From an uncultured Pseudomonadota bacterium (GTDB lineage: Bacteria; Pseudomonadota; Alphaproteobacteria; Rs-D84): DNA of 64,000 bases. Every line of letters starts with the position of its first letter. The first letter of the stretch is position 1. Location: assembly GCA_949296475.1 (NCBI GenBank), contig CASFOK010000001.1:20535-84534 (forward strand), written 5' to 3'. Shown here in pieces: positions 3,597 through 47,063 of the stretch. Made by a program: the position numbers and the translations under genes. Under the pieces are notes generated by a model. That model had not been told where the DNA came from and did no database searches. It was given only the letters and a program-made list of their open reading frames with translations.

Positions 3597-4772
3597 ATGA
3601 AAAGGTTGGTTGGGATTTTTCTTGTTACATATTTTATGTGTGGCACTGCTTTTGCGGCGCAGTACAAGGCCGCTTTGGTTGCAGATATGGATAGCGGGCG
3701 AATACTTTATCAGGAAAACGCAAACGTTCAAAATTATCCAGCCAGTTTGACTAAGATTATGACTTTGTATTTAACGTTTGATGCGTTGGAACACGGACGT
3801 TTGCATTTAGACGATTATTTGATTGTATCACAATCTGCGGCGGCTGCGTCACCTGTTAAACTGGGGTTGACCGCAGGCAGTAAAATAAAAGTAGAAGATG
3901 CGATAAAGGCTCTGACGGTGTTAAGTGCTAATGATGTCGCGCGCGTGTTGGCAGAAAATTTGAAAGGCGGAAAAGAGGGGAATTTTGCAGAACTAATGAC
4001 GCGCGTGGCGAATGAAATTGGTTTGTCTGGGACTAATTTTGAAAACTCGTCTGGGTTGCCGAACGATGACCAATTATCAACTGCGCGTGACATAGCGTTA
4101 TTATCCATGGCGATTTATAAGCATTTCCCTCAATATTGGAAGTATTTCAGTATCAAAACGTGGACTTATAACGGTAAAACGTATACTAACGGAAACAGGT
4201 TGTTGGGGACTTATCCGGGGTGCGATGGCATGAAAACGGGTTATACCAATAAATCGCGCTATTCGTTGGTTGCAACGGCTAAACGTGATAATCATCATTT
4301 AATATCCGTTGTTTTGGGCGCTGAAAACAAAGATGTTCGTGCAAATACCGCGGCAAAACTGTTAAACAAAGGTTTTGCTATGGTTGATAGTGGCGATGTG
4401 CCTTCTATGTCGCAGACTTATTACGCGCCTGCGCAAACTGTTGATTATTCTGCGCCGACGTTTAAGGCGGCATATAACGCTGCTACAACTGGTGCGTCGC
4501 AATATAAAACAGTTGATAATTATGCGGATAATAAGTCCGATAACAACTTAACTGCTGGTGGGGCGGGTGTGCAGTTTGGTGCTTTTTCTTCGCGCAGTGC
4601 CGCGCAAAAACAGGTCAGCCTTGTTAAGAATAAACTGGGCATCAGCACGGTAATTGAAGATGCGCCAAACGGAATGTATCGCGTTCGCGCAAACGGTTTG
4701 TCAGACAGTTCTGCGCAAAATGTAAAAAGCAGGGCAGACAACGCCGGAATTGATTGTTATATATTTCACTAG
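3597..4772 (+). CDS. dacC: D-alanyl-D-alanine carboxypeptidase (PBP5/6 family) with C-terminal SPOR domain
   Basis: Signal peptide. SxxK motif (ASLTKIMT). SPOR-like C-terminus (GVQFGAFSSRSAAQ...YRVRANGL). Confidence 0.85.
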   Translation: MKRLVGIFLVTYFMCGTAFAAQYKAALVADMDSGRILYQENANVQNYPASLTKIMTLYLTFDALEHGRLHLDDYLIVSQSAAAASPVKLGLTAGSKIKVEDAIKALTVLSANDVARVLAENLKGGKEGNFAELMTRVANEIGLSGTNFENSSGLPNDDQLSTARDIALLSMAIYKHFPQYWKYFSIKTWTYNGKTYTNGNRLLGTYPGCDGMKTGYTNKSRYSLVATAKRDNHHLISVVLGAENKDVRANTAAKLLNKGFAMVDSGDVPSMSQTYYAPAQTVDYSAPTFKAAYNAATTGASQYKTVDNYADNKSDNNLTAGGAGVQFGAFSSRSAAQKQVSLVKNKLGISTVIEDAPNGMYRVRANGLSDSSAQNVKSRADNAGIDCYIFH

Positions 4773-8575: not shown

Positions 8576-10150
8576 ATGGTAAAGTATTTAGATAATAATT
8601 CTGGCTTTCAGCAATGGAGTGCGAATAAGTACGCACAAGAAAAGTCAAAATCACGTTGGGGTACTTTTTTTTGGTGGTTGATGTTGTTCTTGGCAGCGTG
8701 GTGGTTAATTGGCGTTATGATGGGACCGAAACCAGCCGCTGAAACCGCAGAAGACGCAACCGTGGTCACAGAAGATTTGTCTGGCGTTCCTGTGTCAGAG
8801 ATAAAGTCTGATGACATTACCGCCAACGTTCAGGGGTTGCGAATTTATGATGTAAAATTATTAAATTTTGCTCAGGACAGTTCCGTCGCGGATAGCGGAC
8901 CTGTGTCTTTGTTATCCCAAGACGGCGCATTTGCCGAGGTTGGCATTTTATCACCGGGCACATCTGCCCCTGTTGCGAAAACCGTGTGGAAGAAAGACGG
9001 TGATACATTTGTCTGGCGTAATTCTGATGGTATTGAATACCGCAGACAGATAAGTGTAGACGGGTATTTAATTTCCGTGTCGGACACAATCAAGAACGCT
9101 TCGGGTAAAGACATCAGTGTTGCACCGTACGCCAGAATCGTTCGTGCAAACGATGTCGTTTCGTCTGCGGGCGTTTACACCGGTGCAATTGCGTATGCTA
9201 ATTCAGATATAGAACGAGACGATTGGCACGACATAGACAAAAAGTCTTTTGCATATTCAACGACAACCGGTTTTATTGGTTTCGCAGATCAATATTGGGA
9301 AACGATTGTATCTGTGGACAGTCCGGACCAGACGTTGCGTATAAAAAAGACGGGTGATTTGTATCAGGCGGACGTTGCGGCAAACGCCGTTTCCGTATCT
9401 GCCGGGGAAAGCAAAACAATAACGACGAACTTGTTTGTCGGCCCGCGTGAACAGCGCGTATTAGATTTAGTGTCTGCCAAGATTGCCGGCATAGACGATA
9501 CGATTGATTACGGATGGTTTTGGTTCTTGGCGCGTCCTATGTTATGGGCGTTAAACGGTTTGAACTCAATTGTTATGAACTATGGCGTAGCGATAATAAT
9601 ATTGACGATATTGTTACGTATTTTGATGTGGCCGCTTACCAGAAAGTCTTATACTTCAATGATGGCGATGCAAAAGATGCAGCCGGAACTGACGCGCATA
9701 CAAAAATTATACGGTAACGACAAGATGCGCTTGCAGATGGAAATGATGAAACTGTATCAGACGCACAAGACTTCACCGATGTCAGGGTGTTTACCTATGT
9801 TGATACAGATACCAATTTTCTTTGCGTTGTACAAGGCGTTATTGATATCTGTTCAGATGCGCAGTGCCCACTTTTTATGGATATCTGATTTAGCGACCAT
9901 GGACCCATATTTCATATTACCGATATTGATGGGGGCAACCATGTGGTTACAACAATATTTACAGACGCCTGCGAAAAGTAACGGTTCTGTGAACGATGCG
10001 GTTGCGCAAACACAAAAGGTTATGAAATGGATGCCGTTATTATTCACAGTTATGTTTGCGTGGATGCCTGCGGGTCTGGTGTTATATTGGACGATGTCAA
10101 ACGTTTTCGGCATCGGCCAGATGTATTACATCAAGAAATTTAACAAATAA
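8576..10150 (+). CDS. yidC: membrane protein insertase YidC
   Basis: 524 aa with a large periplasmic domain and the conserved C-terminal 5-TM core. Confidence 0.9.
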   Translation: MVKYLDNNSGFQQWSANKYAQEKSKSRWGTFFWWLMLFLAAWWLIGVMMGPKPAAETAEDATVVTEDLSGVPVSEIKSDDITANVQGLRIYDVKLLNFAQDSSVADSGPVSLLSQDGAFAEVGILSPGTSAPVAKTVWKKDGDTFVWRNSDGIEYRRQISVDGYLISVSDTIKNASGKDISVAPYARIVRANDVVSSAGVYTGAIAYANSDIERDDWHDIDKKSFAYSTTTGFIGFADQYWETIVSVDSPDQTLRIKKTGDLYQADVAANAVSVSAGESKTITTNLFVGPREQRVLDLVSAKIAGIDDTIDYGWFWFLARPMLWALNGLNSIVMNYGVAIIILTILLRILMWPLTRKSYTSMMAMQKMQPELTRIQKLYGNDKMRLQMEMMKLYQTHKTSPMSGCLPMLIQIPIFFALYKALLISVQMRSAHFLWISDLATMDPYFILPILMGATMWLQQYLQTPAKSNGSVNDAVAQTQKVMKWMPLLFTVMFAWMPAGLVLYWTMSNVFGIGQMYYIKKFNK

Positions 10151-10154
10151 ACTT

Positions 10155-10182
10155 TGAACGCCCAGACGGGCGTTTAATTTTT
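10155..10182 (+). terminator. rho-independent terminator after yidC
   Basis: aacgcccagacgggcgtt hairpin followed by a T-rich tract (taattttt). Confidence 0.6.
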
Positions 10183-10553
10183 GCATATAAAGCGTTTGGT
10201 GTTTGTATAAATGGTGCTTTGTTTATACCCAGGACTTGTTTAGTTAAATCCACGCAGGTTTTTGGTTTCTTATATTCGTAAGTATGTTTTTGATTTATGC
10301 ATACGAATTCCCAGCCTGCGTTTTTTAATAATTGCATACTGTTAATAGTCAGCGGGATTTTTACAATATGCTTATATTTAACAAAGTGCAACATTATAAA
10401 GCGATTGTTTTTTCTAAGTATGGGTGCGCAGTGCTTGTACCTGCGACAAAATATTTTCGGTATAAATTTAGAAGTTTTTTTTGCAAAGGCGACGATAATC
10501 ATAAAGAATCCTTTTGTATATTTTCGCACGCCTGAACGGCGTGCGGTATAAAA

Positions 10554-10904
10554 CTATTGTTCAATCCAACCGCGTTGTTTTGCGGCGTTTTCTAGCACCT
10601 GCATTGCGCGTCGCCATAAATCTGCGTCGTGATTTTCGGCCCATATGTATTGATGAGGCGCGCGTCTGCGGTCACCAAATTTTTTCATTACGTCCAATTG
10701 TTCTTCGGTTATTCGGCCGGAAAGGTATAGTTTTGTAATCAAAGATTCTACGTCTAATAATTCGCACGGACGTTTGGTGCAATTTGTTCTTGTTCGCAAG
10801 AAACCGTTTTGTACAGATTTAGAATACAAGAACCAAAACCACAATTGTTCTGCGTTTTGAAATTTTTCTGCGGTATATAAAGTTTGTATGTTTTGCGATG
10901 TCAT
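10554..10904 (-). CDS. hypothetical small protein (116 aa). It is the promoter-proximal neighbour of the T4SS core operon but lies in a separate transcription unit.
   Basis: Not AT-biased junk: Trp-rich (WFWFLY), balanced composition. No family recognised by eye. Confidence 0.45.
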   Translation of the reverse strand: MTSQNIQTLYTAEKFQNAEQLWFWFLYSKSVQNGFLRTRTNCTKRPCELLDVESLITKLYLSGRITEEQLDVMKKFGDRRRAPHQYIWAENHDADLWRRAMQVLENAAKQRGWIEQ

Positions 10905-11073
10905 TTTAACTACCTCCTTTTAGTATGACGTTACATGACTGGATATATAAAACACGAATAGAAATCTGTAAAAGATTACAACCAATGGTTGAACTGCGAA
11001 TCGGATTTCTGATTCGTTAAGGTATTTTGGTCAATGCTTTCCGAATCGTGTTTTTATACATTTTTTGTTTATA

Positions 11074-11101
11074 AATAAAAAAAGTGCGCAAAAATGCGCA
11101 C
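11074..11101 (-). terminator. rho-independent terminator on the minus strand, 3' of virB10
   Basis: gtgcgc-atttttg-cgcac hairpin followed by T7 on the minus strand. Confidence 0.55.
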
Positions 11102-11201
11102 AGAAAAATCATATTTAACTTTGTTTATATTGTTATAGTTACACCTCCTATGATTTTCAATATTGGTTAAAAACAAACCCGCCAAATTGGCGGGAACTTG
11201 T

Positions 11202-13652
11202 TTACTTTATGGGTGGGAAGCAATCGCCACCTGTTTCTGGACAGCAATTGAAGCCCTGGTCGCCCATATCTGTATAAATTTCACCTATGCAGCAACCGTA
11301 TTCATCTGGGATTGTGCCGTCGGGGCACGTTAATACGTTCGTAGTTGTTTCCACGGGCAAGGTTTCCGTACTGGTATTATCTTGGAACGGGTTTTGAATA
11401 ACCCCATCTTCATAAGTTAAACCAAGTATATCTTCATTATATGCCTGACTACCACTTATTCCTGTTAAACCTGTTCCTGTACCAAACTCGGAACCTGTAC
11501 CATAATTTGCTTGGAATTGTTGTTGTTGATTTTGATACAGTGCATCTTGTTTTGCGTTGTTTATCGCTTGGTAATTTAGCGACTGACAATATGCCAAAAC
11601 AGTTCTGTAATCATAACCAGATTTATAAATTTCTTCTATTTTGTCTTTATTAATCTCAAAAAGACCGTTAGAATCTTGTTTGCAATATTCTTCTCTCAGA
11701 TTAAACGAACGTACCTGACCAACCCACGAAGAATCTTCATAATCTACATCTACAGAAGAGGGTTTCTTATTCCATTCATCATTACGTAGATTGCGATTAT
11801 CCAGCCTGGTGTTTTCTTTAACGTTTTTAACAGAACATTCTTTTGTGTTATCGTTGCCACATGTAATTACCAAATCTTCTGGTGAAAATACGGTTATACG
11901 TGTACCAGCTGCAATTGAAAATGGTGGTATTGTATTGTCCATTGCATCAACCAGTAATTTCTGTGCAACCTGATTCCATGCAGTTATTATTTCATTCTTT
12001 GCAAGCTCAGAAGAACGTACTGTACCTGATTGAACAACTGTATTGTTATCCAAATCAATTTGGTTAACAAACGTATCTGCGATTGGTGCAATCATATTTA
12101 CCGCAGCCGGAACAATCGCAGTCAGCATTGGCATAACAATTTGTTCAACATAGTCTGTACTGCCATGCCCCGGAACCCCCGCGCGCCCCTGTGAGTCGCC
12201 AGAAAATGGGTTGTTATCATGAAAATTGAATTCAACACCATTTGGTAATATAAATTGATACCATTCTATTTGCATACGACCAATTGATTTATATGGTCCA
12301 GGTAATTCACCGGTTACATATCCCAACAGCAACGTACCAGTTGGTATAATAACAGTACGACCATCATCAGAATATACGTTTCTATCAACTGTTGCGCGTA
12401 CTGGTAATGTTTGCTTTTTACATGTTCCTGTTGAATCGCAACCATATAAAGAAGGGTCTGCGCGAACTTCGGATACGATTGTTGCAGGAATTGGTTTATA
12501 TTGTCTTAATACAAACTTTCTATCAAATGGGTCGGATGAAAAAACCGCGCTTTTACTACTGCTGCCTATCTGAATTTCAGTTTCAGGATTGTTTAATGTT
12601 ATTCTAAAAATATTGCCTGTTTCTGTTGTTGCATCGGCGCTTTGTGGTAACGCGGCCAATTCGTCGGCTGTTAATTGCCGCGCAAGATTTTTTTCTTTTT
12701 TAGGTGCAGGATTTGATAATTGCGGAATTTCACGATTTATAACGTTGGTATAACCGATGTGTTCCGCATCTGTTCCTATTTTCGTAATATTATCGTTGAT
12801 GTCTGTTATTATACCTGTATCAGGATTGTATACGCCTGTCGGGCTGTCACAATTTTTATCTGAAAAAGGATGGTAATAATACGCGCCTGCTTCTGGACGA
12901 ATCCAACCGCTTTGCACACCTGATAAGTTGTATCCAGGAAACGCAAAGTCAGAACAAGACTCTGCCGGTTTTGCAGGTTGCGTTTCAGGTGCGGTTTTGG
13001 GCGACACATCTATAAAGGGATCCGATGGTGCAATTTCTTTGATTTCTTGTTTTATTTCCTGCTTTACCGTTTTAACAGGCTCGGGTTCCGGTTGGGGTTC
13101 GGGTTCTGGTTGTGGCGCTGGTTCTGGTTGCGGTTCTGGTTCTGGCGCCTTTTGTGGTGTATCGGCACTGACGATGACGTTCGTCTTTGTTGACTTTGTC
13201 ATCGCATCGGGTTCTTGGGTACCGTGCCACTTTACAACCAGTTCAACAATTTTCGTAGATACATCACTTGTCGGTTGATAGTCCAAGGTAATTGTACACT
13301 TATTTTTAGCATCTATCTGATTTTTAGCAACGCATGTTTGATTCATGCTTAAACCAGGAACCTGTTCAAGAAAGTTTACTTCAACGATTTTTGTTGGGGC
13401 GTTGGTTGATAAATTAACTTGTCTGGTGGTCTTGGTCCCAACCATTGTGTTTGACATGTCTATAATTTCTGGGTCAAACTTTAGTTGTATCGCCACCGAT
13501 TCAGTCGTTTCAATTTTTTCTTTTTCTTTACTTGTTAACAGCAACGTTAACAGAATCATTACAACGACAAACGCAGCCGCCAATAACAACCACTGAACAT
13601 GCTTTGGCGTATTTTTACGTAAATCAGAAATTTGTTGTTTTATAGTACTCAT
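11202..13652 (-). CDS. virB10: Type IV secretion VirB10/TrbI-family protein. At 816 aa it is atypically long. It has an N-terminal TM, a PEPEPQ repeat, a canonical TrbI C-domain, and an extra Cys-rich tail of about 225 aa.
   Basis: From memory, VRATVDRNVYSDDGRTVIIPTGTLLLGYV, SQGRAGVPGHG and PFSIAAGTRITVFSPEDLVI match VirB10 C-terminal domain signatures. Confidence 0.8.
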   Translation of the reverse strand: MSTIKQQISDLRKNTPKHVQWLLLAAAFVVVMILLTLLLTSKEKEKIETTESVAIQLKFDPEIIDMSNTMVGTKTTRQVNLSTNAPTKIVEVNFLEQVPGLSMNQTCVAKNQIDAKNKCTITLDYQPTSDVSTKIVELVVKWHGTQEPDAMTKSTKTNVIVSADTPQKAPEPEPQPEPAPQPEPEPQPEPEPVKTVKQEIKQEIKEIAPSDPFIDVSPKTAPETQPAKPAESCSDFAFPGYNLSGVQSGWIRPEAGAYYYHPFSDKNCDSPTGVYNPDTGIITDINDNITKIGTDAEHIGYTNVINREIPQLSNPAPKKEKNLARQLTADELAALPQSADATTETGNIFRITLNNPETEIQIGSSSKSAVFSSDPFDRKFVLRQYKPIPATIVSEVRADPSLYGCDSTGTCKKQTLPVRATVDRNVYSDDGRTVIIPTGTLLLGYVTGELPGPYKSIGRMQIEWYQFILPNGVEFNFHDNNPFSGDSQGRAGVPGHGSTDYVEQIVMPMLTAIVPAAVNMIAPIADTFVNQIDLDNNTVVQSGTVRSSELAKNEIITAWNQVAQKLLVDAMDNTIPPFSIAAGTRITVFSPEDLVITCGNDNTKECSVKNVKENTRLDNRNLRNDEWNKKPSSVDVDYEDSSWVGQVRSFNLREEYCKQDSNGLFEINKDKIEEIYKSGYDYRTVLAYCQSLNYQAINNAKQDALYQNQQQQFQANYGTGSEFGTGTGLTGISGSQAYNEDILGLTYEDGVIQNPFQDNTSTETLPVETTTNVLTCPDGTIPDEYGCCIGEIYTDMGDQGFNCCPETGGDCFPPIK
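13081..13150. repeat. tandem hexanucleotide repeat (ggttct/ggttgc) encoding (PEPEPQ)n in VirB10
   Basis: Direct reading of the sequence. It translates on the minus strand to PEPEPQPEPAPQPEPEPQPEPEP. Confidence 0.8.
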
Positions 13653-13673: not shown

Positions 13674-15221
13674 TTACTGTATTCTGACGACGCTGCAACT
13701 TACCCCTTGGGACGCGGTTAACTTGTCACACAGCGTTTGTGCAGTGTCAATATCTGACATCGGCCCTATGCGTAAACGATACAAACGCGCCGTAGAAGAT
13801 TCAGAACCTAAATCGCCAACACCTTGGGCATCAACCGCAAAGAATACCATGTCTTTATAAGGTGTCAGCAAGCCTTGACCGCTGTCACCGCTGAACTTTG
13901 CCAGCAAAGTCGTCCAATAATCTTCCAGTGCTTTTACAGACGTGTCAGACTTCAGTTCTACGGCAACGCCAGATTGGTTCGTGGTAATCAGCGGTATGTT
14001 TGACTGTGGTAAGAAAGAACCCGCAGTTAACCTTTCAGTTGGTATCATTGAAACGCCACTGCTGCCGCTGCTGGTACCATAATTTGCAGCCGGAACGCCG
14101 TAACCCGCCGGCATGTAATATCCAGTTGTTGTGCCACCGGTCATATTATTGCCAACAAACATTGGCGTAGTGGTATAATTACCCACACCATAGTTCATCG
14201 CTGATACATCTGCGTTATACGCAATATTGTTTAAAGATTGTCCGGACATCATGCTTTGGGCAACATTCGCCTCGGCCAATGCCATGACAGATGCTGTGTC
14301 CGCAATCAAGAACGGTTTTTCACGTTTCTTTATGCAGACGATACGTTGACCGCTGCGCAATACCATATCGCCGACCGCTTCTACTATTAACAGACGACCG
14401 TCTTCACCATCCGTGCGGAAACCAACAGGTGATTCACCGCCTTCTACCAGTAAAGAAACAACCGGTCTTTGCGTCATAGATATAACTTTGTCGCCAAAGT
14501 CTATGTACGTAAATATTCTATCGCGCCAGACGCGTTCAGGCGCAATTACATAATCATCTGGGTTGGGTACGAATATATCTAAGTCAAACCTGAACTCTGA
14601 CGGGTCAATTTTCATGGATTTTATCCACCCATAGTCTTCGCCGTCAACACCGACGGTATTGCTGTCCACCGAAGATACCGTTTTAAATATGGACGATGAA
14701 CCGCCCACAGCCACGCCTGTTGAACCGCTGGCATTTGGTAATACCGCGTTATTGTCCAATACGACTTCTACTTGAGAATACGTAACCTCGCTGGCGTTTG
14801 AAGGTTCGCTGCGCAGATAGAATATGTACTGATTGCCGGATTTTCCAGTTACAATAAAGTTCGTGTCAGAACCTTGGTTACTTTTTTCCGGGGTGATTAG
14901 TATGGTGTTACCGCCCTTGGTTGCGTCAAAGGAAAATAAGTTCTTGTTGCCAACCACTGCATCTTCTATTTGTTCGCCGTTTGGCAACGTTATCATCGTT
15001 ACCATGCCGTTACGCAGTTTAACGGGTAAAACCGTACCCTTGGACCATGTCAATTGCGCATATCCGGGCTTCATACTGCCGGCGGTCATGTTTGCAGATG
15101 GGTTATTCCAAGCGTCTTGCACGCCATAATTAGTCGCAATTGCGTTGCCTGATATACAAACAGAGCAAACCAAAAAGAAACAAAATATAGATATATTTAA
15201 CTTTGCACCTGTTGAAAACAT
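13674..15221 (-). CDS. virB9: Type IV secretion VirB9/TrbG-family protein (515 aa). It has a signal peptide, VirB9 N- and C-domains, and a 210-aa extension ending in a SPOR-like module.
   Basis: GNTILITPEKS...DTNFIVTGKSGNQYIFYL corresponds to the tNLxVxTdkRtYxFxL signature. IFTYIDFGDK...LLIVEAVGDMVLRSGQRIVCI corresponds to the VirB9 C-domain. The C-terminus LYRLRIGPMSDIDTAQTLCDKL...CSVV is SPOR-like. Confidence 0.75.
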   Translation of the reverse strand: MFSTGAKLNISIFCFFLVCSVCISGNAIATNYGVQDAWNNPSANMTAGSMKPGYAQLTWSKGTVLPVKLRNGMVTMITLPNGEQIEDAVVGNKNLFSFDATKGGNTILITPEKSNQGSDTNFIVTGKSGNQYIFYLRSEPSNASEVTYSQVEVVLDNNAVLPNASGSTGVAVGGSSSIFKTVSSVDSNTVGVDGEDYGWIKSMKIDPSEFRFDLDIFVPNPDDYVIAPERVWRDRIFTYIDFGDKVISMTQRPVVSLLVEGGESPVGFRTDGEDGRLLIVEAVGDMVLRSGQRIVCIKKREKPFLIADTASVMALAEANVAQSMMSGQSLNNIAYNADVSAMNYGVGNYTTTPMFVGNNMTGGTTTGYYMPAGYGVPAANYGTSSGSSGVSMIPTERLTAGSFLPQSNIPLITTNQSGVAVELKSDTSVKALEDYWTTLLAKFSGDSGQGLLTPYKDMVFFAVDAQGVGDLGSESSTARLYRLRIGPMSDIDTAQTLCDKLTASQGVSCSVVRIQ

Positions 15222-15239: not shown

Positions 15240-15923
15240 TTATATACTCGTTTCTACTGAATAACCGGTATCCAGTGGGTCACCGTTTCCAGAATCTATT
15301 TCGTATTCCGAAACGCGAAGCCCCAGCGGGTTATTCAAACGATCTGACCAGTCTATTCGTGCGTTATCGCTTTTATCCACTTTTATTTTTATTCTATACT
15401 CTTTTTTATCCGACTGTCTATCATTATCTGCACAGAAATAATAAAATTTTACAATATATGTGTCTTCTGCGTGCGGGGTTAGTGCATTATTATCAAATTC
15501 CACGCTGCAAGAAAACTCAAAATCCGGCAAGTCAGACATCCAAGCGTTCCACATATTGGTTTGCGTAAATTCGTTATAAACTTCCTGGGTTGACCATGCG
15601 TGAACAATACTGTCTGGTCCATCGTTATTCCATTTTGTGCGCATTAGCCCCGCATTAGGTACGATTTCGTTTCTTGCCTTGACGTATTCCAAGATGAACG
15701 CTTTTTCATAGTTTATGAAATTTTCATCCGAAGGCGCCATTTCTCGCAATACGATTTGCAGATCGCTTTTTGGACGAGACATCAAGAAAAATACTTGTGG
15801 GCGATTTACGGGAAACATATTATATAACGTAAACAGCAACGCAACCAACACAACCAGCATTCCTGCGAACACGAATGTCATCAATCTGGATAGCAAAATT
15901 GGCGGTTCTATGCGGTCTTGCAA
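15240..15923 (-). CDS. virB8: Type IV secretion VirB8/TrbF-family protein (227 aa, bitopic)
   Basis: Short cytoplasmic N-terminus, a single TM, a periplasmic domain, and a C-proximal NPLG motif (RLNNPLGLRVSEY). Confidence 0.7.
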   Translation of the reverse strand: MQDRIEPPILLSRLMTFVFAGMLVVLVALLFTLYNMFPVNRPQVFFLMSRPKSDLQIVLREMAPSDENFINYEKAFILEYVKARNEIVPNAGLMRTKWNNDGPDSIVHAWSTQEVYNEFTQTNMWNAWMSDLPDFEFSCSVEFDNNALTPHAEDTYIVKFYYFCADNDRQSDKKEYRIKIKVDKSDNARIDWSDRLNNPLGLRVSEYEIDSGNGDPLDTGYSVETSI

Positions 15924-16154
15924 GCGTTCCTCTCCCTGTTATTATAAAGATTGTAGAAAAAAATCGGACACCTATGCAAGTAAAAAGTGCAGCGAAATCA
16001 TATTTTAATTAATTTTTATGAATAATTTTTACTTGCTTGTCATTAATTAAAATCTTATAATACTTTCCACTTGATTTTTTGTATAGTTGTGCTATTGTAT
16101 CGCAGATCATTGGGGTCAGCGGCATAACAGACGGACAAGTACAGTAATTGAATT

Positions 16155-29337: not shown

Positions 29338-29418
29338 ATTGTTTTTATAGGAATAGATGAATATTGATATTGTTTAAAATTTAAGCGATTTTTGTATTGT
29401 ATATAAAGGTTGTATAAT

Positions 29419-32112
29419 ATGAAAAAATCGCTTGTTTTTGTGTCGCTTATTGTTTGTTCAAGGGCGTATGCCACGGATGTAGATAATTTTACCGATTTTT
29501 ATAACGCGTATAAGAATTATGCGACAGAAAACAGCATAACTATAACAGGCGACATAACGTCAACGCGTTTAATCAGCGTACCCGGTGCAGAAAGTACGAT
29601 AATTAACGGGGGCGGTTTCGGTTTTGATGGCGGGGCATTTAACGGCTTTACGGTGTCAAGTGGGTATACAATGTCTTTGACGGACGGGGGCGGTTTTACT
29701 GTTTCTGGTCAAACGGCCAATGTGAATAGTTCTTTTAATAATTTTTATCAATCTGGACAAGGGGCGGTATTTGCAAACCTTGGTGGTAGTTTGACTGTAT
29801 CTAACTCTGCGTTTACAAATAATTCTGCACGTTTAGGGGGCAGCGTTTTTTATCAAAGTAATAATGCTACTTTGAACGTGTCGGATAGTGTTTTTGATAC
29901 TAACACCACAACGCGAAATGGCGGTGTAATATATACACAATACGGTACGAATGCGATTATAAACAACAGTTTTTTTCAGGGAAATTCAGCCAGTCAATAT
30001 GGAGGGGTTGCGTTTAATGACGGTAATTTGACTATATCTAATGGTGTGTTTGTTTCAAATACAGCATCAAGTGGTGCGGCGATATATAATTCTAATACGA
30101 TTACATTAAGCGATGTTTATTTCTCTGGAAACACCGGCAGTCAAGGCGGTGGTGCAATTTATAGCACGGGTATGATGAATCTTGAAAACGGTATATTTGA
30201 AAATAATACAGGTCAAACGGGCGGGGCGATTTCAAATTATGGCATAGTGGGTGATACTTTATATGCAGTGATAAAAAATGCTAGTTTTACAGGTAACAGT
30301 GCTACATACGGTGGTGCGGTGTATAATTGGGATGATATGTATATAATAGATAGCAGTTTTACAAATAATTCTGCAACAGATAATGGCGGTGCAATATTTA
30401 ATTTAAATGCGTTGTTTTTGATTGCTCAGAACGCGGATATCGTATTTAGCGGAAATACAGTATCCGGTGAATCTAATGCGATTTATTCGTCTGAATCGTT
30501 ATTTTTAAATGCGGCGCCACAATATCAGATAACTTTTAATGACAAGATTACAGGTTCTGGTTCGTTGATTGTGAACAGAGCATATGAACTGGAAAATGAT
30601 ACAATGCCAGCCGGAGGTACCATAGTTCTAAATGAAGATATGTCAGGGTTTACAGGGAACGTAACAATAGAATCCGGCATTGTAACAGTTACAGATAGCG
30701 GTAATTTTTTTAATGCAAACGATTTAACTGTTTCAGGTGGCGTTTTAAATTTAGGTTTAACAAATGCAACGGTTACTTCTGCAAACTTTCAATCTGGTGC
30801 GACTTTACGTTTGTCTGTTCAAGATGTGGATAATTATGGTTTTTTAACGGCGGATTCGTTTAATATATCTGAAAACGCCGCAATAGATGTGATTCTTGGC
30901 AGCAGTGCTATGGATGGCGTCAGTTCTCTGCGATTACAATTATTGCGCAGCAGTCAGGTTATAACGGATAATTTCTTTCCGGAAATAAGCAATAATATTT
31001 ATGATTTTATAAAACTTGGTAATGGTTGGTACGAAATTGTTCAATCAAGTTCAGTCTTGGATGTTATAAAAAACGCCGGAGGAACACAAAATAATGAAAA
31101 TACCGCGCTTGGATGGCAGGATATGTTGCTGACCGATAACAGCGTAACGAATGAAGTTTATGAAAAACTAAATGAGTTGGTTCAATTAGATGCGGTTGAG
31201 TATATAAAGGCGTTAACTGCTTTGGCGCCTTCACCTGCGCCACTGATGCAGATACTTGGTACTGCATATATTGATAGACTTGATAATATGGTGCACGATA
31301 GGCAAGAATATTACGTTGGTAACGGAATATTGTGGGGTTCGTTGTTTGGTTCGGGTGGTAAATTAAAAGAAAATAATTTTTATGCGGACTTTGATATACA
31401 TGGTTATGGTTTAGGCTTTGGTGCCGAATATAATTTTGATAATTGGGACGTTGGTGCCGCGTATACGTATCAGTACGATAAATTGGCAAGTTGGGCAAGG
31501 TCAATTATTGCGCCTACACATGGCATAGGGCTGTATGCAAAATATGATAACCGAAGTTTCATTTGGAATAATTATGCCGGTTTCTTTTATACGGATATGG
31601 ATGAAACGAAAAACGTTGCGGGAATACACTTGTTTGATAACACGGATGTTTATACAACTGGTGTGTGGTCTGACATAGGTTATGTTGTACCTGTTTATAA
31701 ACTAAATTTTATCCCTTACATAGGTACTCGGTACATGTCGGTGCATCGTGGTTCTTCTGTTGATACAGCAGGTCAAGAAATATCAAACGCAAATTTAGAT
31801 TTTTTAACCACGTATGCAAGATTGTCCGCAGAATACAATTTCAGTTATGACGATGAATTGACGATTACGCCTATAATAGAATTAGGGGCATCATATGATT
31901 GGCACGCGGCTGTTGAAGATATAAACGTGCTTATAATGGGAAATGAATATTCTATTGCTACACAACGTTTATCGCATTGGCAAACGTCCGGGGGCATAAA
32001 ACTAAAATTAGGTGTTGGTGAAGTTTACGACGTAACGTTCGGTGCAGATTTTTCCGTTAGACAAGGGTATTATAACTATTCTGGTAATATACACGGCGTT
32101 TTAAGGTTTTAG
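29419..32112 (+). CDS. autotransporter with Pmp-type (Chlam_PMP-like) repeat passenger and C-terminal beta-barrel
   Basis: Signal peptide MKKSLVFVSLIVCSRAYA. At least 8 FxxN...GGA[IVL][FY] repeats. The C-terminal roughly 280 aa is rich in alternating aromatics and ends in F (GVLRF). Confidence 0.75.
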   Translation: MKKSLVFVSLIVCSRAYATDVDNFTDFYNAYKNYATENSITITGDITSTRLISVPGAESTIINGGGFGFDGGAFNGFTVSSGYTMSLTDGGGFTVSGQTANVNSSFNNFYQSGQGAVFANLGGSLTVSNSAFTNNSARLGGSVFYQSNNATLNVSDSVFDTNTTTRNGGVIYTQYGTNAIINNSFFQGNSASQYGGVAFNDGNLTISNGVFVSNTASSGAAIYNSNTITLSDVYFSGNTGSQGGGAIYSTGMMNLENGIFENNTGQTGGAISNYGIVGDTLYAVIKNASFTGNSATYGGAVYNWDDMYIIDSSFTNNSATDNGGAIFNLNALFLIAQNADIVFSGNTVSGESNAIYSSESLFLNAAPQYQITFNDKITGSGSLIVNRAYELENDTMPAGGTIVLNEDMSGFTGNVTIESGIVTVTDSGNFFNANDLTVSGGVLNLGLTNATVTSANFQSGATLRLSVQDVDNYGFLTADSFNISENAAIDVILGSSAMDGVSSLRLQLLRSSQVITDNFFPEISNNIYDFIKLGNGWYEIVQSSSVLDVIKNAGGTQNNENTALGWQDMLLTDNSVTNEVYEKLNELVQLDAVEYIKALTALAPSPAPLMQILGTAYIDRLDNMVHDRQEYYVGNGILWGSLFGSGGKLKENNFYADFDIHGYGLGFGAEYNFDNWDVGAAYTYQYDKLASWARSIIAPTHGIGLYAKYDNRSFIWNNYAGFFYTDMDETKNVAGIHLFDNTDVYTTGVWSDIGYVVPVYKLNFIPYIGTRYMSVHRGSSVDTAGQEISNANLDFLTTYARLSAEYNFSYDDELTITPIIELGASYDWHAAVEDINVLIMGNEYSIATQRLSHWQTSGGIKLKLGVGEVYDVTFGADFSVRQGYYNYSGNIHGVLRF

Positions 32113-33462: not shown

Positions 33463-33487
33463 AAAAATCCCCAAATGGGGATTTTTT
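33463..33487. terminator. bidirectional terminator between convergent mraZ and the 785-aa gene
   Basis: aaaaatcccc-aaat-ggggatttttt. Confidence 0.65.
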
Positions 33488-35843
33488 AGGGTTCTTCATC
33501 AGGGTCACATGTGTTTGTTTCGGAATTATATGTCCCCGTGTTGCATACGCAACTTGGATAAGTCCCTGTTGAATCAGCCGGGCAAGTGGTTGTCACAGCG
33601 TCTGCGTCACATGTGTTGGTTCTTTGGTTATAAGTATATCCTGCATTGCACTGACAGTTAGGATATTTTGAACCCGCTTGTGCGTTTGCCGTCGGGCATG
33701 ACATACATACGTTAGATGTTGGTATATATGTTGCCGATGAACTGGTGCAAACACAATCTGGGTAAGTACCACTTGCATTAGAAGGACAAGTCGGATTTGA
33801 TAATACCTGACCAACCCAGTTTGCCATATCAGAAACGCTTGTTCCTGTTGCGCCTGTTGCAGACATACATGTGGTTATATTGGCTTTACATGCGTTGATA
33901 GCGATGTTTATGCTTGTTGGATTTAATGTATTATAATTATTCTGTGCCAAGCAAGAAGATACGTCTGTTATACATGTTTCTGCATATTCTGATAACAACG
34001 AGTCTTGGGCAGACTTAATTTGTATCAGCGTGCGGTTCAAGAACTCTTTTATCACGTTGTTTGTCGGATTGTATTTCAGGTTTTGACCCGTGCCAGTATA
34101 AGTAATATCTTGGCATTTGTTTAATACAGACATGCACATGCCGTAATTTTTGCCGTCTTTGTCGTCGTGGTATCCGATTTTGTTTTGTAAAAATGCGGAC
34201 ATATTTGTAGACGGACTTTGTGAAGCGTTGGCAGTAACCGTGTTTGTTATGTATTCGCTTAGTAAGCCTGAATCACCCCAAGCATTTTTATTGTTATCGT
34301 ATGTCCATGTTTGATATATTTCACCGTTGTCAACGTCACCTGGAACGCCTGGTTTGCTGCCGATGACTATTTCGCCGTTTACGATAAACTTACCTGTTGG
34401 ATCCAAACAGTTTTCATAATCGCTGCCACAGACAAAGTCGTCCTGCATGCAAGAATCCAACGCATTTACGCAACCGCGTAAATCATAAGCGTTCTTTTGT
34501 TGTGCAACCAATAAACGTGCCTTTTGTAAAACGCTTTTTGCGTTTCTGACGGTCGCGCTCATTTGGTCATTAGAATCAGTTAAACTGCGTTCATATATGA
34601 TACATTGCTTATCAATTTCCAAATCATACGAATTTGTTATGACCGTGATATCAACGCCTTGGGCTGCGCAACTGTTTAATACAGATGCTTTACAACGAGC
34701 CGCCGCCGTTTTATACAGTTGTTCGCCACGTTGATTGCTGATGCTGCTGGTGTCCGAAGAAGTGCCCAGTAATGCCCCTAAATCAAAACCAGTGCTGTCA
34801 ATCGTAAAGTCCAGTAACCCTGTTAAGTCCAGACTTAAACCGCTGGTCGTTGTAGAAGATGCTTTTCCTGTTTCAACGTCAATAATCATCTTTTTGATTT
34901 TGTCCAGGTCGTTTTTCAGCTGAGTATTATCAGTTGTCGTCTGCATTTCTAATTCAGCCTCGGTCTGTGTGAACAGCGTTTCTATTTCATCGGAACTTAG
35001 ACCTATGTATTGGATTTTTTGGGCGACGTCTTGCAGTTCTTCGGTTGCTTGTTTCAAAGCAGCCTCTGTTTCTGCGTAATTTTTCAAGTTCGCACTGCAA
35101 CTGCAACGACCTTGGTTATCATCTAATACGTTACAGAAGTTATCCATACAAGAGGTATATTGTGCCTTACAAAAATCTGTAATCTGTGCCAATTCATCTA
35201 ACGACATGCTGGAAGAAGTATCCGTCGTGGTTGTAGTTGTTGTCCCAGCGCGAATCGTCGGGGTGCGCGAACGAACAGCAGACGTACTTGTTCCTACGCG
35301 GCTGCTAACGTACAAGGGGGTTGCAACGGTGTCGGTCTGAACAATTGATGCTCTTGCATTTTGTGCCCTGTTATTATTGGTAGAACTTTGGCGCGTTGTC
35401 ACTGTCTGCACGGGCGCAATAGAACGAGCAGAAGTAGTCGCGGTACTTCCTGTTGTCGTTGGACGCCCAGACGATACCGTTCTTGTTGAAGTTGCGGTGT
35501 TAACCGTGTTCGTTGCTGTCGTTCTTGCAGTAACTGTACGCGCCGGTGAAACTGTTCTTGTTGTTGTGGTATTGCGACTGCTTGTCGTGCTAGTAGAAGG
35601 GATTGCACGTGAAGCCGTTATTCTACCTGTTGCAGTACGCGGACTTACAGATGTTGTCGTAACAGGAACAACCGGGGCCGCTTGCTTTGTTTCTGTTTTT
35701 TCTTCTGCGACCTGTTCTTCCTCGGCAGGTGCAGAGTATTCGTCAGAATACTCCATCACTTCTTCGTAATAATAAGCAGGTGCAACCTCGGCAAAAGCGG
35801 GTAAAACCAACAAGCCACTAAGTACTGCGATAAATCTTTTCAT
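33486..35843 (-). CDS. secreted 785-aa protein. It has a signal peptide, an acidic stretch, a roughly 190-aa Thr/Ser/Arg-rich low-complexity region, a coiled-coil-like segment, and a large Cys-rich C-terminal region with 3 tandem roughly 26-aa Cys repeats.
   Basis: MKRFIAVLSGLLVLPAFA signal peptide. The region RTVSPARTVTARTTATN... Repeats of the form G[ST]YPxCxCxxG.TYN..TNTCD. Confidence 0.7.
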   Translation of the reverse strand: MKRFIAVLSGLLVLPAFAEVAPAYYYEEVMEYSDEYSAPAEEEQVAEEKTETKQAAPVVPVTTTSVSPRTATGRITASRAIPSTSTTSSRNTTTTRTVSPARTVTARTTATNTVNTATSTRTVSSGRPTTTGSTATTSARSIAPVQTVTTRQSSTNNNRAQNARASIVQTDTVATPLYVSSRVGTSTSAVRSRTPTIRAGTTTTTTTDTSSSMSLDELAQITDFCKAQYTSCMDNFCNVLDDNQGRCSCSANLKNYAETEAALKQATEELQDVAQKIQYIGLSSDEIETLFTQTEAELEMQTTTDNTQLKNDLDKIKKMIIDVETGKASSTTTSGLSLDLTGLLDFTIDSTGFDLGALLGTSSDTSSISNQRGEQLYKTAAARCKASVLNSCAAQGVDITVITNSYDLEIDKQCIIYERSLTDSNDQMSATVRNAKSVLQKARLLVAQQKNAYDLRGCVNALDSCMQDDFVCGSDYENCLDPTGKFIVNGEIVIGSKPGVPGDVDNGEIYQTWTYDNNKNAWGDSGLLSEYITNTVTANASQSPSTNMSAFLQNKIGYHDDKDGKNYGMCMSVLNKCQDITYTGTGQNLKYNPTNNVIKEFLNRTLIQIKSAQDSLLSEYAETCITDVSSCLAQNNYNTLNPTSINIAINACKANITTCMSATGATGTSVSDMANWVGQVLSNPTCPSNASGTYPDCVCTSSSATYIPTSNVCMSCPTANAQAGSKYPNCQCNAGYTYNQRTNTCDADAVTTTCPADSTGTYPSCVCNTGTYNSETNTCDPDEEP

Positions 35844-43932: not shown

Positions 43933-45414
43933 ATGAGAGTCAGTGTAGTTTCTTTGTTAAGTGTTTTTTTTATGCCTTTCGTTGCGTTGGCGTCTAACGA
44001 GGGGGTGCCTTCTTATTATCAGAACAATTCAACAACGACGGTTAATCGTTCGGCATATAATCAATATCAGCGACAAGGATACACGACATATGTTGGTCAA
44101 TCGGGGGGCAAGCAAATTGTTGAAAGTCGTTCTTACTCTTATCAGGTTCCGCGACCGGTGGTCCCGCAAATTAGCGGTACGATGACGACGAACGGTATTG
44201 CGATGCCTGTTGCCGAAGAAGCGGCAACATCTGTATATGCTAAATATGCCAGAAGATTTGCAGATTTTGAATTTGAAACAGGTGTAAATTCCGTCTTGGA
44301 ATGGGATGATATGATTTACAATGAAATTGGTGTTGGCGTACAACATAATTTCAGTTTGCGTAATTTTGATATGTTTGCTTACGGTGAATATAGTATGGGG
44401 TATATGTCACATGGTGGACTGTCCATGGATTATGACTTAAAGCCGTATGATGAATCAGACCCTTCTTATGGAATTTTCACTATTTCTGTTGGCGATCAGA
44501 CGGGCAAGACAAATCACTTGAAGTTAGGAATCGGCGCACATCATATTTGGGACATTGGCGGATGGAAGTTATCCCCGTCGTTTGGTTATGAAATTTTCAA
44601 TCATAACTTGGAAATGTCAGATCATTTGTATCCCAACCCTGGCATCTTTTTACCGTTAATGACGAACATGGGCGACTATGTTTACGGTGATGTAAATGGT
44701 AATTATTATGCTTTACCCATAAATATGGAGGCACCAGAAGATTGGTATCAGGTGTGTATGTCACCGGAAGATATAAAACTGGTTCAGGCCCCCGCAGGTG
44801 GTGCAATAATTGACCTGGGGACAGAGTTGGTAACCGGCGATTACAATCCGGATATGGGGTATGTACCATGGGGTGTAGATTCTGGTGAATGTGTAATTAT
44901 TGGCGGTGATGGTCCTATACTTGTAGACGGTACTACGCATATTTATAATACTACGTGGAGCGGTTTTTATATCGGGCTTGAGATAGAAAAACAAATGACC
45001 CTTGTTGACAAGTTGCGTTTTTATTTCCAGGTTGGTTTGCCGAAATATTCATCCGAAGGTATCTGGCCAAACAGAACGGATTGGCAACAAAACCCCAGTT
45101 TTATAGATGAGGGTAGTAACGGTGCGTACTCTTATACCGCGGAAATGGAGTATAACTATAAATTATCAGACCGTATGCAATTGGCAATAAAAGTAGATAC
45201 CGATTATTTCTATGTCGGAAAAATCGGCGGGGAATTATATTTGGCGGAATATAGTCAATATTTAGTTGATGAAAACGGTTTTTACATATTGGACGATAAC
45301 GGTTTCCCAATTTTAGAAACTGTGCCGGCCAGCACGCAGTATATCAGCGAGCAGTTAAAACACGCTGCGTGGCAATCGTTTGGTTTGCATATCGGAATAA
45401 AGTATTCTTTCTAA
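43933..45414 (+). CDS. putative outer-membrane beta-barrel protein
   Basis: Signal peptide. Gly/Tyr-rich. C-terminal ...IGIKYSF. Confidence 0.5.
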   Translation: MRVSVVSLLSVFFMPFVALASNEGVPSYYQNNSTTTVNRSAYNQYQRQGYTTYVGQSGGKQIVESRSYSYQVPRPVVPQISGTMTTNGIAMPVAEEAATSVYAKYARRFADFEFETGVNSVLEWDDMIYNEIGVGVQHNFSLRNFDMFAYGEYSMGYMSHGGLSMDYDLKPYDESDPSYGIFTISVGDQTGKTNHLKLGIGAHHIWDIGGWKLSPSFGYEIFNHNLEMSDHLYPNPGIFLPLMTNMGDYVYGDVNGNYYALPINMEAPEDWYQVCMSPEDIKLVQAPAGGAIIDLGTELVTGDYNPDMGYVPWGVDSGECVIIGGDGPILVDGTTHIYNTTWSGFYIGLEIEKQMTLVDKLRFYFQVGLPKYSSEGIWPNRTDWQQNPSFIDEGSNGAYSYTAEMEYNYKLSDRMQLAIKVDTDYFYVGKIGGELYLAEYSQYLVDENGFYILDDNGFPILETVPASTQYISEQLKHAAWQSFGLHIGIKYSF

Positions 45415-46607: not shown

Positions 46608-47063
46608 ATGTCTCGTCAAGTTCAGTTCAGGCGCGGCAGTGCTGTTGAACACGATAGTTTTATCGGCGCCGAAGGCGAAATAACCGTAGATACAACAAAC
46701 AATACGTTGCGGGTTCATGATGGTGTTAACCCCGGCGGTTTTGCCTTGGCGCGTCAAGATTTAGTTGGTGATACCGTTGTTGATACTTTTGTATCCGAAG
46801 ATGGTGCTTTTTGGTATCGTAAATATAAGTCAGGCTGGCTAGAACAAGGGGGGATTTCTGTTAGTGCGAATATCATTTTTCCGGTGTCTTTTATGAATAC
46901 TAAATATACAGTCATGGCGTTGCCGGTAATGATTGACGGCGGTGTTGGAACGATATCCGTAAGTTACGCCAACAAGATAAAAACAAGCATAAGCATACAA
47001 GTTCGTTGGAATGGTGGTGCCGTAGATGATGCGTCCAGAATGTGGTTCGCATGCGGTTTTTAA
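46608..47063 (+). CDS. phage tail-fibre-like small protein (Mtd_N-like N-terminus plus tail-collar-like C-terminus)
   Basis: QFRRGSAVEH...GAEGEITVDTTNNTLRVHDGVNPGG matches the RRGT...GE...DT...DG tail-fibre N-motif. C-terminus ...MWFACGF. Confidence 0.5.
   Translation: MSRQVQFRRGSAVEHDSFIGAEGEITVDTTNNTLRVHDGVNPGGFALARQDLVGDTVVDTFVSEDGAFWYRKYKSGWLEQGGISVSANIIFPVSFMNTKYTVMALPVMIDGGVGTISVSYANKIKTSISIQVRWNGGAVDDASRMWFACGF

Follow-up and report, generated by a model that had tools for sequence, protein, structure and literature searches.

A clade-wide C-terminal tail with a six-cysteine module on a divergent VirB10 protein of uncultured gut Alphaproteobacteria

VirB10 and its C-terminal tail

Here, we study the virB10 gene in a 64,000-nt stretch (the window) of contig CASFOK010000001.1 (assembly GCA_949296475.1) from an uncultured Pseudomonadota bacterium of the alphaproteobacterial lineage Rs-D84. 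The gene product of 816 amino acids (aa) carries behind its barrel domain a cysteine-rich C-terminal tail that ends in a module with six cysteines. The original prediction, which was made from the sequence alone, had placed such a tail of about 225 residues at 11202-11885. This interval covers aa 590-816 plus the stop codon, the strings quoted in the prediction are found there, and the 214-221 residues of the tail fit the predicted length. The latter range results from the TrbI, VirB10 and ComB10 profiles, which stop at aa 595-599. The gene and its parts are listed below in window coordinates, where evidence from AlphaFold2 models is abbreviated as AF2 and their confidence is given as pLDDT (predicted local distance difference test).

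11202..13652, minus strand: virB10 open reading frame (ORF), 816 aa, one unbroken frame; the stop codon (11202-11204) lies within the coordinates
13533..13592, minus strand: N-terminal transmembrane (TM) segment, aa 21-40 (sequence hydrophobicity; 93% conservation)
11868..12500, minus strand: TrbI/VirB10 beta-barrel domain, aa 385-595 (Pfam, NCBIfam, Foldseek)
11934..12161, minus strand: predicted antenna projection, two helices (aa 498-530 and 547-573) around a 16-aa loop, set within the barrel domain (AF2 secondary structure at low pLDDT; definition from PMC12407924)
11205..11867, minus strand: whole C-terminal tail, aa 596-816 (Pfam/NCBIfam domain ends, alignment)
11832..11864, minus strand: junction hairpin with the invariant pair C598/C606, SP.DLV.TCG...KEC (alignment)
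11496..11705, minus strand: small folded mid-tail domain, aa ~650-719, which holds C657/C689 (AF2 pLDDT 86-91; co-loss of the Cys pair)
11328..11495, minus strand: flexible, fast-evolving linker rich in Q/N/G/T, aa 720-775 (pLDDT, lowest conservation, indels, nonsynonymous differences)
11205..11327, minus strand: terminal six-Cys module, aa 776-816, C-x10-CC-x14-CC-x6-C-FPPIK (alignment, AF2, selection)
11178..11194, minus strand: intrinsic-terminator-like hairpin of 7 bp (6 GC) followed by a T-run; it starts 8 nt after the virB10 stop

The Pfam family TrbI (PF03743) matches aa 385-595 with 64 bits (cut-off 35) and covers positions 5-187 of the 188 in its profile. The NCBIfam match to T4SS_VirB10 ends at aa 595 as well (190 of 197 profile positions), that to ComB10 at aa 599. 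Since the T4SS_VirB10 score of 59.6 bits is far under the equivalog cut-off of 220, we consider the protein a divergent family member that is recognised at domain level only. Behind the TM segment follows a proline-rich PEPEPQ region (PEPEPQPEP, aa ~165-195), for which weak TonB-like matches are found too. That is, the layout predicted from the sequence is bitopic and TonB-like, with an N-terminal TM segment and a Pro-rich periplasmic linker, as is typical of VirB10.

To model the barrel together with the tail (aa 372-816), AF2 was run on an alignment of 20 rows, which resulted in a low-confidence model (mean pLDDT 56); the tail-only model is based on 34 rows and reaches a mean pLDDT of 69. 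The confidence of both is only moderate because the alignments are shallow. The larger model shows strands, the two long helices (aa 498-530 and 547-573) and two final strands, after which the tail begins. Searching it with Foldseek against the PDB gave 24 significant matches (E-values from 3e-9 to 4e-4), all of them VirB10-family barrels, i.e., CagY, X. citri VirB10, TrwE, TraF, ComB10, DotG and the F-plasmid TraB. These alignments span about 220-250 columns of the 445-residue query with targets of 170-238 residues, which is about the size of the barrel domain. At the given model confidence, the protein is predicted to form a beta-barrel with a two-helix antenna of canonical length. Together with virB8 and virB9 directly upstream (see below), the TrbI domain and the exclusive VirB10-family hits identify the protein as a true, divergent VirB10, as had been proposed. 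Where VirB10 proteins usually end shortly past the last barrel strand, 221 residues follow the end of the Pfam domain here.

The tail contains ten cysteines in total. Six of them form the terminal module (776, 787, 788, 803, 804 and 811), with the last one five residues before the stop; the other four are C598, C606, C657 and C689. The predicted Cys-rich terminal module is therefore real, but its cysteine count was given as eight, which is neither the six of the module nor the ten of the whole tail. A Q/N/G-rich low-complexity stretch is present at aa ~700-740, as predicted. Within the tail, the AF2 model features two small confident units with disordered linkers between them. The mid-tail domain (aa ~650-719, pLDDT 86-91) is modelled as a short helix, a beta-hairpin, a helix and a long helix (aa 682-717), and the module (aa ~779-816, pLDDT ~85) as a beta-hairpin with strands at aa 791-795 and 801-805. 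The segments aa 720-733 and 757-771 are below a pLDDT of 50 and thus look like flexible linker.

Cysteine conservation and pairing were counted in 202 aligned homologues. All ten tail cysteines are kept in 200-202 of them. C657 and C689 occur together in 200 sequences, are missing together in two and are never found singly. This pairwise behaviour argues for disulfides and hence for an extracytoplasmic location, such that the proposed disulfide-rich nature of the tail is backed by its cysteine pairs. The N-terminal half of VirB10 also has extra Cys-paired domains. Inside the barrel domain, 87 of the homologues have C405 as well as C411 (window 12419-12439) and 107 have neither; as they come and go as a pair, they likely mark an optional disulfide-stapled insertion.

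Conservation of the tail and distribution of the module

The 120 best database homologues all span 100% of the query with lengths of 811-852 aa and originate from independent ENA, Logan and NCBI assemblies with contigs of up to 1 Mb. Restarting the search from the most divergent member yielded 107 further proteins, of which 105 carry the module at their end, followed by a further 5-6 residues. These distant homologues come from metagenome-assembled genomes (MAGs) of termite and mammal guts and are named 'TrbI/VirB10 family protein' or 'hypothetical' by NCBI. Orthologues in related genomes thus share the tail, in line with what the original prediction had suggested to check. Overall, it is present in more than 300 homologues, which represent some 70 species-level members of the alphaproteobacterial order Rs-D84 ('Ca. 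Enterousia') from the guts of mammals, birds and termites. This conservation is far beyond chance.

For locus comparisons, we scanned one genome per GTDB species with an alignment of the module. Of the 399 confirmed stretches, the best 80 were analysed as loci. Almost all of them belong to MAGs of 'Candidatus Enterousia' or of uncultured Alphaproteobacteria ('Rickettsiales') from human, mouse, sheep, horse, chicken and rumen samples, and one circular genome of 958,618 bp is included. A full VirB10 with barrel, mid-tail domain and module is encoded by 71 loci, while two more have cut copies. Among the related loci, VirB10 identity drops to 44% while the gene arrangement persists.

An artefact, i.e., a frameshift or assembly error that fused a separate downstream gene to virB10, had been named as a possible refutation. 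We give this explanation next to no probability: the frame is unbroken in more than 300 independent assemblies (ENA, Logan, NCBI and JGI), which refutes it by conservation, and the junction SP.DLV.TCG is free of gaps in the homologues. In addition, a terminator-like hairpin follows 8 nt past the stop, so that reading frame and transcript seem to end at the same place.

Based on Nei-Gojobori counts of the proportions of nonsynonymous (pN) and synonymous (pS) differences, the module is under purifying selection as strong as that on the barrel (pN 0.02-0.11 vs. pS 0.28-0.89). Mid-tail and linker evolve faster than the module, with pN values of 0.15-0.29 for the linker. The nearest relative (L001) was compared over 20 kb, with a mean nucleotide identity of 94.5%. 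Here, the most divergent segments are the tail linker (window 11000-11999, 85-91% nucleotide identity, with indels) and the N-terminal periplasmic region (13000-13499, 87%). For this pair, the ratio of nonsynonymous to synonymous substitution rates is about 0.7-0.8 in aa 597-775. The fast divergence of both regions hints at diversifying selection or recombination.

We also searched the tail alone among 1.84 billion representative proteins, which resulted in 198 matches and revealed the module beyond VirB10 in several architectures. One group are bitopic proteins of ~670-850 aa in which no Pfam domain is found; they consist of a conserved coiled-coil domain at the cytoplasmic N-terminus, a single TM helix, a long acidic linker rich in Pro/Glu/Val, and the terminal module. 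Their gene is always located directly downstream of gcrA, the gene of the GcrA cell-cycle regulator (L078:8006-10126 (+); also in L022, L040, L042, L051, L052 and L067), and adjoins a prepilin peptidase gene and three conserved ORFs that match no family. Another group of ~170-280 aa has a Sec signal, a two-Cys helical hairpin and then one to three modules. A small secreted protein with two modules is encoded by the last gene of a conserved MacB/FtsX-ABC operon beside ftsQ/ftsA (L082:3055-8663 (+); L084:3650-8555 (+)). This operon comprises a 107-aa ORF, a 449-aa ORF with a weak STN match, a MacB_PCD/FtsX permease, an ABC ATPase and an ORF of ~190 aa, and it may be the exporter for Cys-rich small proteins.

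Further carriers are P0321 (141 aa), which joins a type IV prepilin-like N-terminus to the module, and P0268 (436 aa), a trypsin-like serine protease with the module; with P0165 they form a carrier set that includes a lipoprotein-like protein. Many proteins of 70-100 aa are a hydrophobic N-terminus plus the module and nothing more. For some inner-membrane-anchored carriers, just a few residues separate TM segment and module. VirB10, bitopic and small secreted carriers co-occur in the same genomes. The last module ends at most 12 aa from the C-terminus in 195 of 197 proteins and exactly five residues before it in 127. The 41-aa module is an autonomous, mobile and probably extracytoplasmic domain at the extreme C-terminus of unrelated envelope proteins. 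Neither phage contigs nor, according to tblastn, the rest of the 64-kb window hold another copy; regular-expression matches in the window are spurious.

No Pfam or NCBIfam family matches the tail, and for 32 modules there is no Pfam match even at E<=10. The tail-only AF2 model has no significant Foldseek match among PDB folds, and the sole PDB sequence match to the tail, a Cks protein, is a spurious low-complexity hit. The spacing CPDG...CC...CCP prompted a test for granulin homology, which was rejected given no Pfam match, an hhalign probability of 4.8% and Foldseek E-values of at least 4. Granulin half-modules, knottins and defensins are alike in their size of ~40 aa, their six cysteines with vicinal CC and a predicted beta-hairpin core; they are the top Foldseek neighbours, at non-significant scores. 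Sorting and anchor domains such as the type IX secretion system C-terminal domain and PEP-CTERM resemble the module in the strict C-terminal position only, with no match to them in Pfam or NCBIfam. That is, the module matches nothing in Pfam, NCBIfam, PDB sequences or PDB folds. In the literature searched, we found no paper that describes a Cys-rich C-terminal extension of VirB10, and no mention of secretion systems of Enterousia or Rs-D84, where the literature covers genome reduction and metabolism. Of the second refutation that had been considered, i.e., that the tail is common in the clade and already described, only the first half holds.

The virB operon and the surrounding window

Directly upstream of virB10 and on the same strand, the genes of VirB9 (CagX/VirB9, PF03524) and VirB8 (PF04335) are found.

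13674..15221, minus strand: virB9, 515 aa, with CagX domain (aa 56-299), low-complexity linker and C-terminal SPOR domain (Pfam/NCBIfam)
13683-13799, minus strand: SPOR domain of VirB9, aa 475-513 (PF05036, 27.2 bits vs. cut-off 21; partial, profile 38-76 of 76)
15240..15923, minus strand: virB8 (family match)

The arrangement L1-nusG / virB8-virB9-virB10-orf116-orf129 / yidC-lspA is conserved, with each flanking or operon gene found in 61-71 of the loci. For instance, virB8 is present in 67 of the 80 loci and virB9 in 71 (67-97% identity). We read the virB8-virB9-virB10 operon as chromosomal and vertically inherited. In VirB9, the low-complexity linker ahead of the peptidoglycan-binding SPOR domain is rich in G/S/T/N and similar to the linker of the VirB10 tail; a fusion of VirB9 to SPOR is not described in the literature searched. 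The window encodes a D-Ala-D-Ala carboxypeptidase (Peptidase_S11; 3597-4772, plus strand) that also has a C-terminal SPOR domain, so two SPOR proteins are present.

Just downstream of virB10 and separated from it by the terminator-like hairpin are orf116 (10554-10904, minus strand) and orf129 (10140-10529, minus strand), which encode 116 and 129 aa. They are kept in 69 and 67 related loci, respectively, and orf116 with ~58-97% identity is more conserved than VirB10. Neither has a Pfam or NCBIfam match or an obvious signal peptide.

Upstream of virB8 we found no ORF for a VirB7-like lipoprotein. A 35-aa candidate ('orf35', window ~16055-16110) was rejected, since in-frame stops in many related genomes identify it as a conserved non-coding DNA element rather than a gene. 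The element sits between tRNA-Trp and virB8 and contains a promoter-like TATACA-17-TATTAT (16085-16057, minus strand). Genes linked to virB10 among the loci do not include a dedicated sortase-like one, and Dsb genes were not found in the window, where the ORFs scanned at 47-55 kb are glycosyltransferases.

Some further genes of the window stand out. The 151-aa ORF at 46608-47063 (plus strand) combines an N-terminal Major-tropism-determinant domain with a Gp53-like tail-fibre domain at its C-terminus. It sits by itself, with a lytic transglycosylase gene on one side and a cluster of glycosyltransferases on the other, and could be a remnant resembling a phage tail fibre or a protein similar to the targets of diversity-generating retroelements. 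Three other ORFs are related to the envelope. At 29410-32112 (plus strand), a 900-aa autotransporter-like protein with Chlamydia PMP repeats is encoded, and at 43933-45414 (plus strand) a Protochlamydia-type outer-membrane protein (Pom). Finally, a 785-aa ORF (33486-35843, minus strand) has no family match at all.

A possible role of the tail in the cell envelope

The tail is best judged against VirB10 proteins of known systems. The canonical representatives, i.e., pKM101 TraF (3JQO), R388 TrwE (7O3J), X. citri VirB10 (6GYB) and H. pylori ComB10 (2BHV), share with the protein studied here the N-terminal TM segment, the Pro-rich region and the barrel with a two-helix antenna, and canonical VirB10/TrbI genes likewise follow virB8 and virB9. 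While the canonical profiles (Pfam, NCBIfam VirB10/ComB10) end at most ~10 residues past the last strand, about 220 more residues with two extra folded units are found here. CagY (H. pylori) and DotG (Legionella), which belong to expanded machines, also have a VirB10 barrel, embedded in a far larger protein. In both, the barrel forms the C-terminal end and the added part consists of repeats on its N-terminal side, whereas the addition is C-terminal in our case. Rickettsiales RvhB10 (Wolbachia, Rickettsia and Orientia; PMC12407924) provides another parallel, since these are also host-associated, genome-reduced Alphaproteobacteria that elaborate the VirB10 part proximal to the outer membrane (OM) and in which VirB7 is missing or doubtful, as here. 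Nevertheless, RvhB10 enlarges the antenna loop (PMC12407924), while the antenna is canonical here and the addition is the tail. Lineage-specific periplasmic C-terminal add-ons are also found in X. citri, namely on VirB7 and, rich in AQGP, on VirB8 (PMC6536674). They are low-complexity linkers plus, for VirB7, an extra domain, and thus concern other subunits and unrelated domains, none of which is Cys-rich or shared with other envelope proteins. The C-terminal extension of X. citri VirB7 is an N0 domain.

What spans the OM in solved systems is the antenna projection, two helices joined by a loop and set into the barrel domain (PMC12407924). To describe the VirB10 C-terminus as the OM channel cap, as was done earlier, is thus imprecise, since the cap corresponds to the internal antenna (aa 498-573). 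The 'antenna' of CagY is such an internal two-helix projection, too, and no C-terminal appendage. Since the cap is the antenna insert and not the C-terminus, surface exposure of the tail in analogy to the CagY antenna does not follow. In addition, the module is also found at the end of carriers that are fixed to the inner membrane or only exported via Sec.

Given its anatomy, conservation, selection, modularity and paired cysteines as established above, we favour, at somewhat less than an even chance, to read the tail as a flexibly tethered, disulfide-stabilised docking module in the periplasm or close to the OM that connects the core complex with a shared partner in the envelope. Following the last barrel strand, the chain would form a disulfide-stapled hairpin (C598-C606), the helical/beta domain (C657-C689), a flexible linker of ~55 aa and finally the 41-aa six-Cys module. 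Each VirB10 subunit (14 in solved minimal systems) would thereby dangle one module on a leash at the periplasmic, OM-proximal side. The modules could bind a shared envelope ligand or partner, which might be the cell wall, a component of the OM or other proteins that bear the module, and so dock or position the machine alongside the peptidoglycan-binding SPOR domain of VirB9. Such docking may compensate for the absence of a recognisable VirB7 lipoprotein next to the operon. We infer compartment, binding function and stoichiometry of the module; because the module is also found on inner-membrane-anchored carriers and VirB9 is fused to SPOR, we lean to the periplasm. A periplasmic position also agrees with the pKM101 and R388 complexes, where Strep tags placed at the C-terminus of VirB10 are both tolerated and accessible (PMC5916273). 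Furthermore, an X. citri VirB10-msfGFP chimera is functional and forms periplasmic foci, where the passages of the source that describe it do not state the GFP position within VirB10 (PMC7286519).

Several points weigh against a periplasmic docking role. The ligand or partner of the module is a postulate, and where the VirB10 C-terminus lies relative to the OM is something we infer. The pilin-like P0321 and the secreted protease P0268 fit an extracellular role at least as well, and the MacB/FtsX-type ABC operon that ends with small module proteins could export them from the cell. VirB4, VirB6, VirB11, VirD4 and pilins were not found within the 64-kb window. The lineage reportedly lacks respiratory chains, which makes periplasmic disulfide formation puzzling (PMC12306168). 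Finally, the mean pLDDT values of 69 (tail) and 56 (barrel plus tail) reflect moderate AF2 confidence.

Some of these points are taken up by alternative explanations. The tails could reach the cell surface and display a ring of Cys-knot modules around the pore of the type IV secretion system, where they would bind a partner or host cell. In this partner-dependent bacterium, the pilin-like, protease and small secreted carriers would display the same adhesin module as well. Beside these carriers and the MacB-type ABC exporter encoded with the small module proteins, such an adhesin would be in line with the linker and mid-tail being the fastest-evolving part of the 20-kb comparison, a pattern common in exposed proteins, and with the supposed dependence of the lineage on other cells (PMC12306168). 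We nevertheless consider it rather unlikely, since in solved VirB10 structures the OM is crossed by the internal antenna and not by the C-terminus, and many folded tails would presumably block a narrow pore. In addition, inner-membrane carriers with very short linkers put the module at the periplasmic face, the SPOR domain appended to VirB9 is periplasmic, and the module was not seen in phage contigs. Alternatively, the module might be a C-terminal sorting or anchoring tag that is read by an export or attachment machinery, e.g., the adjacent MacB/FtsX ABC system, and that anchors its cargo covalently or non-covalently to the outer envelope, in which case VirB10 would have co-opted the tag for OM anchoring. 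This would explain the strictly C-terminal position in 195 of 197 proteins of at least five architectures (127 ending 5 aa after the last Cys), the diverse cargo classes and the genetic linkage of the small proteins to the ABC/FtsX operon. It is decidedly unlikely, however, given that some proteins have two to three tandem copies, which is odd for a sorting signal, that known sorting-domain families in Pfam and NCBIfam give no match, that VirB10 of all studied systems reaches the OM complex without such tags and that no sortase-like gene is linked to virB10.

The puzzle of disulfide formation could be avoided if the six cysteines with their two vicinal CC pairs coordinated a metal or cofactor in a reducing anaerobic periplasm instead of forming disulfides. 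The hosts of the module are strict gut anaerobes reported to be without respiratory chains (PMC12306168), such that DsbA/DsbB re-oxidation is doubtful, and conserved acidic residues flank the cysteines. As the pattern contains neither CxxC nor His ligands, other cysteines of VirB10 come and go in strict pairs as disulfides do, and the weak, non-significant fold neighbours are disulfide-rich mini-proteins, we regard metal binding as very improbable. Overall, the module looks like a general docking or binding module and not like a special channel antenna.

Elaborations of VirB10 described so far concern the N-terminal part or the antenna loop. A C-terminal appendage that is under selection throughout a clade represents a third way in which the OM core complex can be elaborated. 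The VirB9-SPOR fusion is a second clue that the machine may be anchored otherwise than VirB7-dependent systems. There is also a small chance that the module represents a new extracellular adhesion/docking domain family of partner-dependent, genome-reduced gut Alphaproteobacteria. If true, an adhesin ring would surround the mouth of a type IV channel, i.e., the channel protein itself would recognise the target cell, and a pilin-like protein, a protease and small bivalent 'bridging' proteins would carry the module to engage that same target.

The six-Cys module is a discovery at family level in itself, i.e., it is compact, C-terminal and common to at least five kinds of envelope proteins. The order that hosts it is abundant in the gut and uncultured, and its genomes of roughly 0.9 Mb suggest dependence on other cells. 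Knowing the ligand of the module would probably show how the envelope of these organisms is organised or how they attach to partners.

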